A stretch of 48,253 nt of DNA from Minisyncoccota bacterium (GCA_036517375.1 DATDWM010000021.1:1-48253), one strand, 5' to 3'; positions 43,964-48,253 are shown, numbered from the stretch's first letter. Notes: generated by a model not told the origin, from the letters alone. Numbers and translations: made by a program.

Positions 43964-44977
43964 ATGGAAAATAAAGAAAAGATAGTGCTCACGGGCGACC
44001 GGCCGACAGGAAGACTTCATCTGGGGCATTATGTAGGCTCAATAAAAAATAGAGTAAAATTGCAGGATGAAGCCAGTAAGTCTTTTTACATGATTGCAGA
44101 TGTCCAAGCTCTTACTGATAATGCCGATAATCCAGAAAAAGTTCGAAGTAATGTCATAGAAGTAATACTTGATAATTTAGCTTGCGGAGTTGATCCAAAG
44201 AAAACAATTTTCTTTATTCAATCACAAGTACCAGAGATCGCGGAGCTCACAGTATTTTTTATGAATCTTGTGACTTTCCAACAACTCTCTCACAATCCAA
44301 CTATTAAGACAGAAATAAAAGAAAAAGGATTTGAAAAAAGCACTCCATTTGGATTTTTAGCTTATCCTGTATCTCAAGCAGCGGACATCCTGTTTTGTAA
44401 AGCCAACACTGTGCCAGTCGGAATAGATCAGATGCCGGTCCTAGAACAAGCAAATGAAATTGTTAAAAAATTTAATGCAACATACAACGTAGATTTATTT
44501 TCTAAAATTAACGGAGTTATTAGTAAGAACTCACGACTTGTCGGCACTGATGGAAACGCTAAAATGTCAAAGTCGTTGGGTAATTGTATTTACCTGTCGG
44601 ATTCAGATGAAGAAATTGAAAAGAAAATCATGCAAGCATATACAGACCCAGGCCATATTCACGTAGAAGATAAGGGTAAGGTTGAGGGGAATGTTGTATT
44701 TACATATCTTGATGTGTTCGATGAAGATAAAGAGGGCGTAGCGGAACTAAAAACTCAATATCAAAAAGGTGGGCTCGGCGATGTGGTATTAAAGAAGAGA
44801 TTAATTAAAGTTTTAATAGATATAATTACACCAATACGCACAAGAAGGGAAGATCTTGCTAAAAACCCTAGTCAAGTTATGAAAATTTTAGAACAGGGAA
44901 CCAAAGAAGCACGCAAGGAAGCAGAAAAAACAATGATAGAAGTACGAACGGCGCTCAAGATTGATTACTTTAATTAA
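43964..44977 (+). CDS. trpS: Tryptophan--tRNA ligase
   Basis: TGDRPTGRLHLGHYVG (HIGH-type) and KMSKS motifs. Size 337 aa. Confidence 0.92.
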   Translation: MENKEKIVLTGDRPTGRLHLGHYVGSIKNRVKLQDEASKSFYMIADVQALTDNADNPEKVRSNVIEVILDNLACGVDPKKTIFFIQSQVPEIAELTVFFMNLVTFQQLSHNPTIKTEIKEKGFEKSTPFGFLAYPVSQAADILFCKANTVPVGIDQMPVLEQANEIVKKFNATYNVDLFSKINGVISKNSRLVGTDGNAKMSKSLGNCIYLSDSDEEIEKKIMQAYTDPGHIHVEDKGKVEGNVVFTYLDVFDEDKEGVAELKTQYQKGGLGDVVLKKRLIKVLIDIITPIRTRREDLAKNPSQVMKILEQGTKEARKEAEKTMIEVRTALKIDYFN

Positions 44978-44994
44978 AATGACATACTGACAGC

Positions 44995-45015
44995 GTACTA
45001 GTATGGTGATATAAA
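44995..45015 (+). promoter_or_regulatory. GTACTAGTAT half-palindrome abutting extended -10 TGaTATAAA of the trpR-like gene
   Basis: TACTAGTA palindrome at 44996-45003. TGATATAAA at 45007-45015 lies 4 nt before ATG 45020. Confidence 0.45.
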
Positions 45016-45019
45016 AATC

Positions 45020-45304
45020 ATGAAGAATAATTCGGAACAATATAAAAGAGAATTGATTGACATCTTGTCAAAAGTTGCAAATGACAAGGACCTCTTGGCG
45101 GATTTTGTTAAAGAAATATTAACACCGCGCGAATTTGAAAATATTGGTGTACGCTGGCAGATAGTGAAGCGGCTGGCAAAAGGGGAGCATCATGCCTCGA
45201 TAGCAGAGGCTCTACATTTAGGAGTGGCCACAGTAACTCGCGGTAGTCGAGAAATGAGGAAAGAGAAAGGAGGATTCCGTCGGGCATTAAAGCTAGTAAG
45301 ATAA
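45020..45304 (+). CDS. TrpR-family (YerC/YecD-like) DNA-binding protein
   Basis: TPREFENIGVRWQIVKRLAKGEHHASIAEALHLGVATVTRGSRE matches the Trp-repressor fold family. Confidence 0.75.
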   Translation: MKNNSEQYKRELIDILSKVANDKDLLADFVKEILTPREFENIGVRWQIVKRLAKGEHHASIAEALHLGVATVTRGSREMRKEKGGFRRALKLVR

Positions 45305-45376
45305 GGCTCAATCAACTGACTAGAAATAAGTTATCCACACCTCGGCAATCTCCCCTCTTGCTTTTATTTTTTATAT

Positions 45377-45402
45377 ATACTAGCATACTAGTATGATAGT
45401 AT
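45377..45402. promoter_or_regulatory. Phased CTAG operator array (ATACTAG-CATACTAGTATG-ATAGTAT)
   Basis: CTAG, CTAG and ATAG centres begin at 45380, 45388 and 45396, an 8-bp phase. The core CATACTAGTATG is a perfect 12-bp palindrome (45384-45395). Confidence 0.55.
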
Positions 45403-45488
45403 TAAAAAATTTACAAACAAAGTCACTTGGGTACCGAGCAGGGTATTGGTGGGGCGCAAGCATTCGAGCTTTTGCGCCGTTTTGTTGA
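45393..45488 (+). CDS. Candidate trp leader peptide (31 aa, tandem Trp codons)
   Basis: Encodes MIVLKNLQTKSLGYRAGYWWGASIRAFAPFC*. Preceded by TTGCTT(45358)-N17-TAGCAT(45381)-N6-ATG. TGG TGG at 45447-45452 abuts the terminator stem. Confidence 0.45.
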   Translation: MIVLKNLQTKSLGYRAGYWWGASIRAFAPFC

Positions 45489-45490
45489 TT
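45453..45490 (+). terminator. Attenuator-type intrinsic terminator in the trpR/trpB intergenic region
   Basis: GGCGCAA(GC)-ATTCGA-(GC)TTTTGCGCC stem (45453-45478), then GTTTTGTTGATTT. Confidence 0.6.
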
Positions 45491-45500
45491 TCTTTTATCC

Positions 45501-45519
45501 ACTAGTCACTAGCGACTAG
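45501..45519. repeat. Three ACTAG pentamers at 7-nt period (ACTAGTC ACTAGCG ACTAG)
   Basis: ACTAG at 45501, 45508 and 45515, between the two terminators of the trp intergenic region. Confidence 0.6.
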
Positions 45520-45546
45520 AACCTAACTCATAAGGAATCCACTGAC

Positions 45547-45575
45547 CAGCGCATGAGCGCTGTGTTTTGTTCTTT
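45547..45575 (+). terminator. Second terminator-like hairpin in the trp intergenic region
   Basis: CAGCGC-ATGA-GCGCTG stem, then TGTTTTGTTCTTT. The tail resembles that of the first terminator. Confidence 0.5.
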
Positions 45576-45594
45576 GGAAAGGGGGGTTGTAAAG

Positions 45595-45789
45595 ATGATT
45601 AATAATGAACACTTCGTTGTAACAAGCCAGGAAGCCAGAAAGGTGGTGGAAGCGATTATGGAACATGCGGAAGCCACAGAGAGGTCAGTGGGCAAGGTTT
45701 TAGAAGAAGTAGTGAGTGGCCTCTTGGTTGTGGTTCACTGGAAAGAGGGTCAGCTTACGCTCCTTTACAGCAGTCCAAACGGGCTGTAA
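45595..45789 (+). CDS. Hypothetical 64-aa protein (SD-led) between attenuator and trpB
   Basis: AAAGGGGGGT lies 7 nt before ATG 45595; the ORF-track start at 45553 lies in the hairpin loop. No family recognised. Confidence 0.45.
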
Positions 45790-45866
45790 TTACTAGAAGA
45801 GCGGTGAGTAATAGAAAGGAATACAATCCAATCTATTACTCACAGCTTTATTTAAAAATAACTTTT

Positions 45867-47033
45867 ATGAAATCATATTTTGGAAAATTTGGTGGACAGT
45901 TTGTTCCTGAGACTCTCATGCCTTCACTTTTGGAATTAGAAGAGTCGTATAAAAAGTTTAAAAAAGATAAAAATATACAAGCGGAATTAAAAAACTTGCA
46001 ACAGAGTTTTATTGGTCGTCCGACTCCTCTGTACTTTGCTAAGAATTTATCTAAAATTACTAGTCAAAAAATTTACCTTAAACGGGAAGACCTCGCACAT
46101 ACCGGTGCTCATAAAATAAACAATGCCCTTGGGCAAGCCCTGCTCGCAAAATTTATGGGTAAAAATCGCATTATCGCCGAAACTGGCGCAGGTCAACACG
46201 GCGTTGCTACGGCGGCAGTATGTGCCAAGCTTGGCTTGGCCTGTACTATATATATGGGTGAAGTGGATGTAAAAAGACAACAACCAAATGTATTACGAAT
46301 GCGATTGTTGGGAGCAAAAGTTGTTTCAGTTTCTACTGGTAGTAAGACACTAAAAGATGCAATAAATGAGGCAATACGAGAATGGATTAGTAGTGCTGAA
46401 ACCACCCATTATATGCTGGGTTCGGTTTTGGGCCCACATCCATATCCGACGATAGTTAGAGATTTTCAGAAAGTAATTGGTAAGGAATCTAGAAATCAAA
46501 TTTTAAAAATTGAAGGTAAATTACCAGATTATTTAATTGCATGCGTTGGCGGTGGAAGTAATTCTATTGGCTTGTTCCATAAATTCTTAAATGATTCAAA
46601 AGTTAAAATGATTGGAGTGGAAGCCGGGGGTATGGGAATTAAAAGTGGCAAGCACGCTGCAAGATTTTCTGGAGGACGGGAAGGAATTTTACACGGTACG
46701 AAATCCTTTGTTTTGCAAGATAAAGATGGCCAAATTACAGAAACCCATAGCATTTCAGCTGGACTTGATTATCCTAGCATTGGACCCGAGCACAGCTACC
46801 TATATAAGCTAGGTCGAATTCAATATGTTTCAATTACCGACCAAGAAGCTTTGGATGCATTTATCTTGTTGTCAAAAATGGAGGGCGTAATTCCTGCGTT
46901 AGAATCAGCTCATGCCGTAGCTTTTACTTTAAAGTTGGCAAAAAAATTGCCTAAAAATAAATTAATTATAGTTAACTTGTCAGGTCGTGGCGATAAAGAT
47001 TTATTAGAAATGACAAAAGGATTAAATATATGA
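45867..47033 (+). CDS. trpB: Tryptophan synthase beta chain
   Basis: [14 protein letters not shown], and the PLP lysine motif HTGAHKINN. Start trimmed to [10 protein letters not shown]. Confidence 0.93.
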
Positions 47034-47809
47034 ATAAAATTGATTTAGTTTTTGAGAAGCTAAGAGGGGAGAAACGTTGCGGACTGATGCCATTTTTAGT
47101 TGCAGGATTTCCAAATTTTAATAGTTCATTAAGCTTGCTAAAGTTGCTTGCACAGCACTCAGATTTTTTAGAAATAGGTTTTCCTTACTCTGATCCTTTG
47201 GCTGATGGTCCAATAATTCAAAAGGCTGATCAAGTGGCTTTAAGAGCTGGATCAACTTCAGATTACGTCTTTAAACTTATTAGTAAACTACGGGAAACTA
47301 CTAAAATTCCTATCACAGTTTTAGTATATGCTAATTTAATATATCAGCGAGGTGTAAATAAATTTTATTCTGATGCTAAAGCTGCCGGCATAGACGGGGT
47401 TTTAATACCAGATATTCCATTTGAGGAGATGGATATATTTGTAAAAGCGGCAAAGAAAAATAATGTAGCCAATATTTATTTACTTTCATCTAGTACTAGT
47501 GAGCAGCGCCTCGTTAATATTTTGAAAGTTGCAGAAGGGTATCTTTATTTGACTTCTATTGTTGGTATTACTGGTGTTAAAAAAGATATCCCACAAGATA
47601 CATTAGATTACATAAAAAAACTGAAAAAGAAAACTAAACTACCGGTGGCTGTGGGATTTGGCATATCAAATTCTACTCAAGTAAAAAAATTAAAAAAAGC
47701 TGGCGCAAATGGGGTAATTATGGGAAGTAGTTTAATTCAACTTATCCAAAGATCCCCTAAAGTAAATAGAAGTGCTATCGTAGGATTTTTAGAAAGATTT
47801 AAGATCTAA
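47030..47809 (+). CDS. trpA: Tryptophan synthase alpha chain
   Basis: ATGA overlap with trpB. Contains [17 protein letters not shown] and the GFGIS motif. Confidence 0.92.
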
Positions 47810-47822
47810 AATATCTGAGTAC

Positions 47823-47851
47823 TTGCGTTTTTATCCATAAATCAATTCAAT
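47823..47851 (+). promoter_or_regulatory. Promoter candidate TTGCGT-N17-TTCAAT upstream of island 4 ORF
   Basis: TTGCGT at 47823-47828 and TTCAAT at 47846-47851. Confidence 0.35.
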
Positions 47852-47905
47852 AGACTCTTTTATGACTAAGCGCTACTGTAGCGTCTAGTTCTTTCGGAGG
47901 TAGAT

Positions 47906-48229
47906 ATGCCCAAGGACACGTTCGAAGTATGGCTCTCGAAGCGGAGTTCGAGTCGCACACGCATGACAGTTCCGGCCCATGTGAAGAAACTCGCGTGCGG
48001 CTGCAGTCGCGAAGAACTCCGTTCGCCTAGGTTCAACATTGGGCTCAAGGAGGACGGATGGGTTCACGTCGGGTGGGATACGCATGACCCCCTCCACCTG
48101 CGGCCGGCCCCACCAATGGGTTCGGCGTGTGCGACGACAGTTCTCGCCCCCTCTGACGCGACAAAGGGGCCGGGACACCCCATTGATTCAAAGTCAGTGC
48201 GGGAGGATAGTGGCTGGGAGGGGTACTAG
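47906..48229 (+). CDS. Hypothetical 107-aa protein on GC-rich island 4
   Basis: GGAGG lies 5 nt before the ATG. The HVKKLACGC motif resembles HVRTACCGC of the island 3 protein. The island runs to the window edge. Confidence 0.5.
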   Translation: MPKDTFEVWLSKRSSSRTRMTVPAHVKKLACGCSREELRSPRFNIGLKEDGWVHVGWDTHDPLHLRPAPPMGSACATTVLAPSDATKGPGHPIDSKSVREDSGWEGY

Positions 48230-48253
48230 AAGTCTTCAGGCGGGCGGATCCGA

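Follow-up and report, generated by a model that had tools for sequence, protein, structure and literature searches.

The window, that is the whole stretch of DNA analysed here, comprises 48,253 nucleotides from a Minisyncoccota bacterium. Gene calls and profile searches gave the gene order trpS-trpR-intergenic region-orf64-trpB-trpA, with 290 nt between trpR and orf64. The genes of this locus are the following.

43964 to 44977, plus strand: trpS, tryptophan--tRNA ligase (TIGR00233, E = 3e-78; PF00579), at the head of a conserved trpS-trpR pair.
45020 to 45304, plus strand: gene of a TrpR-family repressor of 94 aa (PF01371, E = 8e-14, above the cut-off).
45595 to 45789, plus strand: orf64, 64 codons, a small protein; the first ORF past the putative attenuator, with the Shine-Dalgarno-like GGAAAGGGGGG ahead of it.
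45867 to 47033, plus strand: trpB (TIGR00263, E = 9e-190), a putative regulated structural gene.
47030 to 47809, plus strand: trpA (TIGR00262, E = 2e-80), a putative regulated structural gene.

The 94-aa TrpR also matches TIGR01321 (E = 6e-12), with a score of 45.9 bits that stays under the curated equivalog cut-off of 67, and the structures of E. coli TrpR (E = 3.4e-7), the DNA-reading helix GVATVTRGS being aligned to GIATITRGS. We found 372 homologues of this protein; among the best 120 of these 372, identity is 73-85% and the named ones belong to Candidatus Nomurabacteria or other Patescibacteria. Searches with Pfam and NCBIfam profiles gave no family match for orf64, and tblastn detected relatives of it at the equivalent position in two of the loci described below, L019 and L026.

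Starting from the TrpR alignment, we collected 48 genomic loci. We observed that trpS immediately precedes trpR in nearly every one and that an element situated 3' of trpR recurs in almost all of them; this leader element was studied in 36 loci. The genes found behind trpR vary: 9 loci (the window counted) have trpBA, 4 have trpEG-like genes, and the rest have other or unidentified genes. In some loci this leader stands ahead of trpEG-like genes, and it is followed by either trpBA or trpEG-like genes in 13. Among the genes that follow it in other loci, 6 of 10 representatives have no Pfam match.

In the window, the following features mark the start of this leader and the operator-like site ahead of trpR.

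44994 to 45005, unstranded: operator-like site O1, CGTACTAGTATG, ahead of trpR, with 1 mismatch to the 12-bp palindrome.
45358 to 45386, plus strand: predicted leader promoter, with -35 TTGCTT (45358-45363), a 17-nt spacer and -10 TAGCAT (45381-45386).
45378 to 45395, unstranded: putative operator O2, TACTAGCATACTAGTATG, with two CTAG cores 8 bp apart, including the palindrome CATACTAGTATG.
45393 to 45488, plus strand: trpL-like leader ORF of 31 codons, MIVLKNLQTKSLGYRAGYWWGASIRAFAPFC*, with the stop TGA at 45486-45488.
45447 to 45452, plus strand: tandem Trp codons TGG TGG, putative regulatory codons identified from sequence and conservation.

An earlier note on this DNA had described an ATG (45393) lying 6 nt after a TAGCAT box, and a 31-codon ORF in which the tandem Trp codons (WW) are followed at once by the arm of a hairpin. 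All of this is present in the sequence, where ACTAGT separates the box (45381-45386) from the ATG. The same note had proposed that a WW mini-ORF is the signature of a Trp-sensing leader upstream of trp genes, and had also considered that the ORF could be fortuitous. The first suggestion is supported by conservation: orthologous intergenic regions do contain the Trp mini-ORF, since in 36 of 36 Patescibacteria loci the ATG and the Trp codons lie in a common frame and this frame is open, when the other two frames are open in just 1 and 6 of the 36. Even with a motif search blind to the frame, the TGGTGG-like motif was found in frame in 34 of 35. The distance from the ATG to the Trp codons ranges from 10 to 30 codons over the 36 loci and the N-terminal two-thirds of the peptide is free in length and sequence. 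The first Trp codon is separated from the stop by 39 nt in 25 of the 36 loci, the ORF extends 18-45 nt further to its stop in 9, and the insertions found in the loop of the first hairpin (n = 4, of 9 or 18 nt) are every one a multiple of 3. The consensus peptide is M[MLI][IV]L...K..[K]SWWGA[EK]xxAFALFC*, with a conserved C-terminal part WWGAxxxAFALFC; the Trp pair is WW in 29 loci and is replaced by WR or LW, that is a single Trp, in 7. Loci of the Doudnabacteria type retain WW within a quite different flanking sequence.

A second sample was obtained by scanning metagenome contigs with TGTTGATTTCTT-N(8-38)-AAGGAATCCA only. We recovered about 40 non-redundant leaders, which share some sequences with the set of 36 loci, and in almost all of them a Trp-containing ORF stops at that TGA; the scan also caught a handful of unrelated chance matches devoid of a Trp ORF. 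This sample includes a second clade with another operator and another start context. As judged from these comparisons, the arrangement of the 31-codon ORF is far beyond chance and the idea of a fortuitous ORF can be abandoned, since the frame is kept in 36 of 36 loci and the metagenome leaders carry the Trp ORF. A predicted hairpin that includes the WW codons themselves (45423-45452, -9.8 kcal/mol) was left out of the model; the stretch matching it differs in sequence and length among relatives.

The promoter geometry is also conserved. A -35 box (TTGCTT/TTGACT), 17 nt, a -10 box (TAGCAT/TATCAT/TAGTAT), the 6 nt ACTAGT and the ATG are kept in nearly all 36 loci, which makes the first base of the ATG (45393) the predicted +1. 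This ATG is the final triplet of the perfect palindrome CATACTAGTATG (45384-45395), so that O2 spans the -10 box, the predicted +1 and the start codon. When ATACTAGCATACTAGT was compared with the E. coli TrpR motif GTACTAGTTAACTAGT, as listed in PMC2811016, 12 of 16 positions matched and the spacing of the CTAG cores was identical. Upstream of trpR, O1 overlaps a predicted -10 box TATGGT (45002-45007), which is part of the promoter-like match ATGACA-17-TATGGT. These features suggest that O1 and O2 would be sites of action of TrpR, through putative binding. In a sister clade with a TrpR of about 50-56% identity, ATGTACTAGTACAT is present in place of the window-type operator, and the WW ORF (MKNNFK...SWW) begins 12-60 nt downstream of the operator or at a palindrome-closing ATG. 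The leader ORF is thus retained though its start context changes.

We found no Shine-Dalgarno sequence before the conserved ATG, or before any later in-frame start, in any of the 36 loci checked. Moreover, 15 of the 36 loci, among them the window, have no alternative in-frame start before the Trp codons. In L007 and L025 the same ATG leads in frame into a racemase-like gene and there is no attenuator. The start just after the -10 box and without a Shine-Dalgarno sequence, pointed out in the earlier note, is consistent with the conserved promoter geometry, and leaderless initiation at 45393 is plausible and the best reading, since the -10 geometry is conserved, a Shine-Dalgarno sequence is missing and the operator ATG is the sole start in 15 loci. 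Another promoter, TTTATA-16-TATGAT (45370-45397, with its -10 at 45392-45397), would start transcription downstream of the ATG. We judged it less likely because its -35 box is not conserved, when TTGCTT-17-TAGCAT is kept in nearly all 36 loci, and because 15 of them offer no in-frame start other than the operator ATG.

Downstream of the Trp codons, the following RNA elements were delineated.

45453 to 45478, plus strand: hairpin T1 (1:2), GGCGCAAGC/GCTTTTGCGCC, -12.4 kcal/mol, directly 3' of WW.
45468 to 45494, plus strand: 5' strand of the predicted antiterminator, made of segment 2 and the tail GUUUUGUUGAUUUCUU, with the UGA stop inside the tail.
45500 to 45531, plus strand: variable spacer inside the central helix, with heptad CTAG/CTAA repeats and a small hairpin (45502-45519) in a subset of loci.
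45532 to 45558, plus strand: 3' strand of the predicted antiterminator, made of AAGGAAUC and the 5' arm and loop of T2 (segment 3).
45547 to 45576, plus strand: predicted terminator T2 (3:4), CAGCGC-AUGA-GCGCUG (45547-45562) followed by the U tract UGUUUUGUUCUUUG.

T1 is built from segment 1 (45453-45461) and segment 2 (45468-45478), and WW abuts its 5' arm in every locus. GTTTTGTTGA comes straight after it, and the TGA at 45486-45488 falls within this U-rich tract. T1 was not listed by a simple terminator scanner, because its stem is bulged and its inner loop is long; T2 is the only hairpin of the intergenic region that the scan listed, with -9.3 to -11.8 kcal/mol. The mean number of U in the 9 nt past the stem is 6.5 for T2 vs 5.2 for T1. 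Past T1 the order is conserved, with the tail GUUyUGUUGAUUUCUU, the variable spacer, AAGGAAUCCAyUAA, T2 and the tract UUUUGUUCUUUG. In addition, the 5' arm and loop of T2 (GGCGCAAnAGC) mimics the 5' arm of T1 (GGCGCAnAGC); segments 1 and 3 therefore compete for segment 2, a competition also known from the trp leader of E. coli.

The earlier note had found no convincing classical antiterminator, but there is one: 45468-45494 can pair with 45532-45558, a pairing that excludes T2. It had been missed because a second hairpin, T2, had not been considered, and this hairpin is very probably the deciding terminator. In the window, the predicted pairs join 45468-45481 with 45544-45558 and 45484-45494 with 45532-45542. 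To measure how well this helix is maintained, we counted the paired cells in alignments and obtained 89.1% with 32 sequences and 90.7% with 62, vs 42-51% in slid controls where the partner strand was moved by 1-3 columns. Double changes were observed in 12 of its pairs, vs 6.5 ± 1.6 and 6.5 ± 1.3 in shuffles (0/500). For T2, 89.2% of the cells are paired and 29 cells have double changes vs 9.3 ± 4.2 in shuffles, one pair being split into CG (14), UA (14) and AU (2). T1 is paired in 83-84% of cells (83.6%) vs 41-62% in slid controls, with double changes in 9 of its 10 pairs among 62 sequences. Run blind, RNAalifold predicts T1, a central helix GAUUUCU:AGGAAUC and T2. According to these models, the central helix would be common to both states, and the switch would oppose its outward extension (segment 2 with segment 3) to T1 plus T2. 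The covariation in these alignments is real but modest, and the pair counts are supportive rather than decisive because the sequences are related and conserved.

We then folded each leader in three situations: free, with the A site of a ribosome on the second Trp codon and with the stop codon in the A site. The stalled ribosome was represented by masking everything to 13 nt beyond the second Trp codon and the ribosome at the stop by a mask from -17 to +12; the extent of the footprint (-17 to +12 nt relative to the A site) is assumed and the folds are equilibrium predictions. In the first set, modelled stalling removes T2 and gives an antiterminator of 21-30 pairs in 31 of 36 leaders, and a ribosome at the stop leaves T2 in place in 34 of 36; the full pattern (T1 and T2 when free, no T2 when stalled, T2 at the stop) was observed in 26 of 36, the window included. 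With the metagenome set, T2 is lost on stalling in 31 of 36 and present at the stop in 35 of 36, and the full pattern was seen in 25 of 36. T2 is still lost on modelled stalling in the Doudnabacteria-type loci L039, L041 and L045, whose sequences are different. When the position of the A site was scanned along the leader in 25 loci, the mean probability of T2, P(T2), was about 0.7-0.95 at other positions and about 0.95 at the stop, with a dip spanning codons -1 to +3 counted from W1, the first Trp codon. It is deepest on the Trp codons themselves (W1/W2, mean 0.41/0.38; 0.00/0.10 in the window), and the P(T2) of the stalled state is not near zero in many loci (mean about 0.4). The earlier note had proposed to look for alternative folds of this RNA, and an antiterminator/T2 switch is indeed predicted in the window, with -28.5 kcal/mol for the antiterminator fold vs -26.1 with T2 enforced, a gap of only about 2.4. 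The order of transcription would favour the antiterminator, because segment 4 is made last.

Taken together, these data make it probable, to our mind strongly so, that 45358-45576 is a two-level Trp control region, with a TrpR-controlled promoter and a trpL-type attenuator ahead of orf64-trpB-trpA. The attenuator is based on the sequences, their conservation, the maintenance of frame and base pairs and the predicted folding switch; from these we infer the transcription start, ribosome stalling, termination and the binding of TrpR at the cassette. At the first level, the neighbouring TrpR-family repressor would bind the CTAG operator over the -10 box, the predicted +1 and the start codon. At the second level, the transcript would start at or just before the AUG at 45393, and the 31-codon ORF would be translated in the absence of a Shine-Dalgarno sequence. 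With little charged tRNA-Trp available, the ribosome would stall on UGG UGG (45447-45452) and cover segment 1 (45453-45461); T1 would be blocked and 45468-45494 would pair with 45532-45558. This antiterminator would consume the 5' arm of T2, and RNA polymerase would continue into orf64-trpBA. When Trp is plentiful, the ribosome would reach the UGA at 45486 and cover segment 2 and the tail, so that T2 (45547-45562 and its U tract) would form and transcription would end near 45565-45576. If the leader is not translated, both T1 and T2 would form. According to the folding models, T2, and not T1, is very probably the deciding terminator of the attenuator; T1 would be the anti-antiterminator, and possibly a pause site or a weak terminator too.

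The earlier note had suggested a simpler variant, where a ribosome stalled on WW occludes the adjacent 5' arm of the hairpin. T1 (45453-45478 and its U tract) would then be the sole regulated terminator, its folding being blocked by the stalled ribosome, and there would be no RNA switch. The physical part of this proposal agrees with our models, since WW adjoins the 5' arm of T1 in every locus, a U-rich tail stands behind T1 (the mean of 5.2 U in 9 nt given above) and a ribosome mask on WW abolishes T1 in all models. However, this explanation leaves aside the second, stronger terminator T2, the conservation of the tail GAUUUCUU and of AAGGAAUC, its partner, and the complementarity, maintained at 89-91%, that links T1 (3' arm) to T2 (5' arm and loop). 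In addition, T1 alone cannot distinguish Trp-rich from Trp-poor conditions, because a ribosome reaching the stop at 45486 also melts it. We consider this explanation improbable as a whole: occlusion of T1 by the stalled ribosome may be retained as one step of the full attenuator mechanism, but not the absence of an RNA switch, since an antiterminator was found. With its own U-rich tail T1 could terminate alone, which the attenuator model merely accommodates.

It could also be assumed that the ORF encodes a functional micropeptide, or that the transcript is a trans-acting small RNA, the hairpins being ordinary terminators and Trp sensing being absent or secondary. The C-terminal motif WWGAxxxAFALFC is conserved, and in S. 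meliloti trans functions have been described for the trpL peptide and the attenuator RNA (PMC7298713, PMC6614838). Nevertheless, the paired RNA segments are precisely those that encode the conserved C-terminal residues, so that constraints on the RNA are enough to explain this conservation, and the N-terminal two-thirds of the peptide varies freely. Furthermore, the element is always directly upstream of genes on the same strand, often trp genes, and its Trp codons sit at the single position where stalling flips the fold. As a replacement for attenuation we hold this explanation for quite unlikely; a trans role on top of attenuation is compatible with the data.

A third explanation, which we regard as very unlikely, would be an RNA sensor working without protein (T-box-like or another riboswitch) or a TRAP-like protein-binding leader, UGGUGG being an RNA motif rather than codons. 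Trp T-boxes use UGG as their specifier, the leader has conserved alternative RNA structures, and UAG repeats are present at 45502-45519. But the frame is kept in 36 of 36 loci, the insertions in the loop of T1 are all multiples of 3 and the position of the stop is conserved, and these signatures are therefore those of translation, not of an untranslated RNA. Rfam searches gave no known RNA family at E ≤ 10 in 44900-45900, with chance-level matches only, and at the gathering score over the whole window they gave only one tRNA, located elsewhere; a T-box riboswitch was ruled out on these two results. TRAP needs 9-11 (G/U)AG triplets with 2-3 nt between them, that is a spacing of 5-6 nt. A TRAP-type leader was ruled out since there are only three UAG triplets, spaced by 7 nt (45503-45519), which are absent from most loci. 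Finally, that TrpR alone regulates, the mini-ORF and hairpins merely ending read-through from trpR, has hardly any probability left: an operator-like palindrome does overlap the promoter and trpR is adjacent, but the WW ORF, T1, antiterminator and T2 are kept over more than 60 distinct sequences and in clades with different operators, and the hairpins lie downstream of the conserved promoter and not straight after trpR.

The proposed attenuator can be compared with the trp system of E. coli, whose attenuation logic is summarised in PMC7755916. In each of them a TrpR-family repressor goes with a CTAG-CTAG operator over the promoter (putative here, from the sequence), and a short leader ORF contains Trp codons in tandem. 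The 1:2 hairpin, the antiterminator (2:3) and the terminator (3:4) are common to both (predicted here), and so is a stop placed in such a way that the terminating ribosome covers segment 2. Several differences are also apparent. The leader ORF has 23-51 codons here vs 14 in E. coli, it lacks a Shine-Dalgarno sequence and the operator palindrome includes its start codon. Its Trp codons are just ahead of segment 1 instead of within it, and its stop is past segment 2. A U-rich tail follows the 1:2 hairpin, and the predicted antiterminator encloses a variable spacer in a long-range helix. Lastly, the regulated genes would be trpBA and a small ORF only, and the organism is a Patescibacterium.

In Sinorhizobium meliloti, the trpL/rnTrpL transcript begins at the trpL ATG and is a possible leaderless mRNA (PMC7298713). 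The leader described here would resemble it as an attenuator with a Trp leader peptide and an ATG-start transcript, the leaderless start being deduced in our case from promoter geometry; unlike it, the S. meliloti operon is not under TrpR repression and its peptide has 14 aa (PMC7298713). The gene arrangement recalls trpRBA of Chlamydia trachomatis, with trpR, a regulatory intergenic region, trpB and trpA, and with TrpR as repressor (PMC7755916). There, the annotated TrpL of 59 aa has non-consecutive Trp codons, is unvalidated and is expected to attenuate poorly, YtgR supplying attenuation in trans (PMC7755916), whereas the intergenic region of the window has a well-formed predicted attenuator in cis. 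In mycobacteria, leaderless polycysteine short ORFs, rich in a regulatory codon, are reported to be amino-acid-responsive attenuators of downstream genes (bioRxiv 10.1101/834739); the amino acid sensed is another one. Our literature search returned no report of attenuation or of TrpR for Patescibacteria or the candidate phyla radiation. All the parts are thus known elsewhere, and the start codon in the operator, the terminator-like 1:2 hairpin and the cassette before different genes are candidate, unproven variants.

A broader proposal, which we put forward only tentatively and regard as rather doubtful, is that this cassette is a portable, "double-lock" Trp sensor. The leaderless start codon would be locked inside the TrpR operator, T1 would be a true terminator relieved by occlusion and the RNA switch would relieve T2; such a cassette would be the mark of a Trp regulon of Patescibacteria comprising, among the genes behind it in other loci, proteins without a Pfam match, W-rich mini-ORFs, the racemase-like gene and GCS2-like ligases.

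Ribosome-mediated attenuation needs translation in step with transcription. A conserved attenuator is therefore indirect evidence of such coupling in bacteria of the candidate phyla radiation, which are not yet genetically tractable. Under the two-level control that we favour, very small genomes would have retained an E. coli-like double control, by repressor and attenuator, over a two-gene Trp salvage module. Since the cassette stands before different genes, many of them without a known family, it may serve as a marker assigning them to Trp metabolism. For the annotation of the window, the 31-codon ORF would be a trp leader peptide, and the attenuator terminator would be placed at 45547-45576 and not at 45453-45478. 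In a search of sequencing runs, no RNA runs with the window sequence were found; the runs containing it were DNA metagenomes from groundwater and soil.

We observed that a sister clade of loci (L052, L055-L057, L059, L067, L070, L076 and others), in which TrpR is ~48-56% identical, has the same leader, with the same tandem Trp codons, 1:2 hairpin (T1), antiterminator and terminator (T2). In this clade the putative TrpR operator is ATGTACTAGTACAT, and the leader ORF, whose product begins MKNNFK..., starts 12-60 nt 3' of it.

The promoter-operator-start module is also used again without the attenuator. In two related loci, L007 (3837-4565) and L025 (3916-4635), a gene for an Asp/Glu-racemase-like protein is directly continuous, and in frame, with the operator ATG; its product starts with MMILDKSSEN-MAEKTVGIIGGLGPETT, and neither tandem Trp codons nor T1 nor T2 was found in L007 or L025.

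In other relatives, we observed Trp-rich mini-ORFs located directly 3' of the attenuator, each behind a strong Shine-Dalgarno site:

L029, 4086-4115: mini-ORF MWWPWFWWI (stop), strong Shine-Dalgarno site upstream
L023, 4043-4069: mini-ORF MLWDPEWC (stop), strong Shine-Dalgarno site upstream
L009, 4083-4115: mini-ORF MLWDIEEWFI (stop), strong Shine-Dalgarno site upstream
L012, 3885-3929: mini-ORF MGWSSLDDWWCLGL (stop), strong Shine-Dalgarno site upstream

Several of the first genes behind the leader encode proteins with a C-terminal Trp (L015, ..ECW; L032, ..AGW; L034, ..SLW; L028, ..PGW), among them the TrpG-like protein of L001 (..SGW) and the TrpE-like protein of L008 (..PMW). The mini-ORFs that follow the attenuator and the Trp-ending first genes may provide a second layer of Trp sensing, at the level of translation.

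The products of the genes that follow the leader in other genomes are candidates for a Trp regulon. When ten representatives were searched, six had no Pfam match, and the matches of the others were to prephenate dehydratase, an AstE/AspA-like domain, DUF6875 and GCS2. Genes at this position include the following:

L022, 4060-5169: gene behind the leader
L029, 4297-4953: gene behind the leader
L030, 4036-4860: gene behind the leader
L031, 4456-6129: gene behind the leader
L036, 4035-5516: gene behind the leader
L042, 4097-5263: gene behind the leader

On the other side, upstream of trpR, two very different types of TrpS occupy the trpS position among loci L001-L040, one ~68-85% and the other ~33-37% identical to TrpS from the window. 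Archaeal-type TrpRS in bacteria of the candidate phyla radiation are reportedly the subject of an existing paper (PMC5370408).

In the window itself (44978-45020), trpR is devoid of a Shine-Dalgarno sequence and lies 42 nt downstream of trpS, with an operator-like site that overlaps a predicted -10 box only ~13 nt upstream of the trpR ATG; the trpR mRNA may be leaderless or nearly so, and the gene may be autoregulated. Between trpR and the leader promoter, we observed an exact match to the DnaA-box consensus TTATCCACA (45331-45339). The same motif, identical or with one difference, ends at a fixed distance of 52-54 nt 5' of the leader ATG in 22 of the 36 related loci, and at 63 nt 5' of this codon in one further locus. 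The motif may serve as an upstream element of the promoter, or may be where a different regulator binds.

The attenuator spacer of the window contains a heptad repeat, CACTAGT CACTAGC GACTAGA ACCTAAC TCATAAG (45500-45534), which brings a TAG or TAA triplet into each of the three frames and folds into a small, palindromic hairpin (45502-45519). The repeat is absent from most related loci; ACTAGAACCTAA is found again in a subset of them (L023, L027, L028, L059 and L067) and CTAGAACCTAA in L009 and L003. It could be a stop trap, a set of extra TrpR half-sites or an insertion.

Further downstream, a perfect 12-bp hairpin, GTGAGTAATAGA...TCTATTACTCAC, is located between orf64 and trpB (45804-45843). 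Its Rfam matches were at chance level only. The hairpin may act in processing or stability, or may terminate transcription weakly. Finally, at the end of the window (47850-48253), the G+C content reaches 50-62%, against ~33-45% upstream. An Rfam search of this segment gave no match at E<=1, and neither strand has an ORF that appears to be coding. The segment could correspond to a structured RNA that has so far escaped recognition, or to foreign DNA truncated where the window ends.
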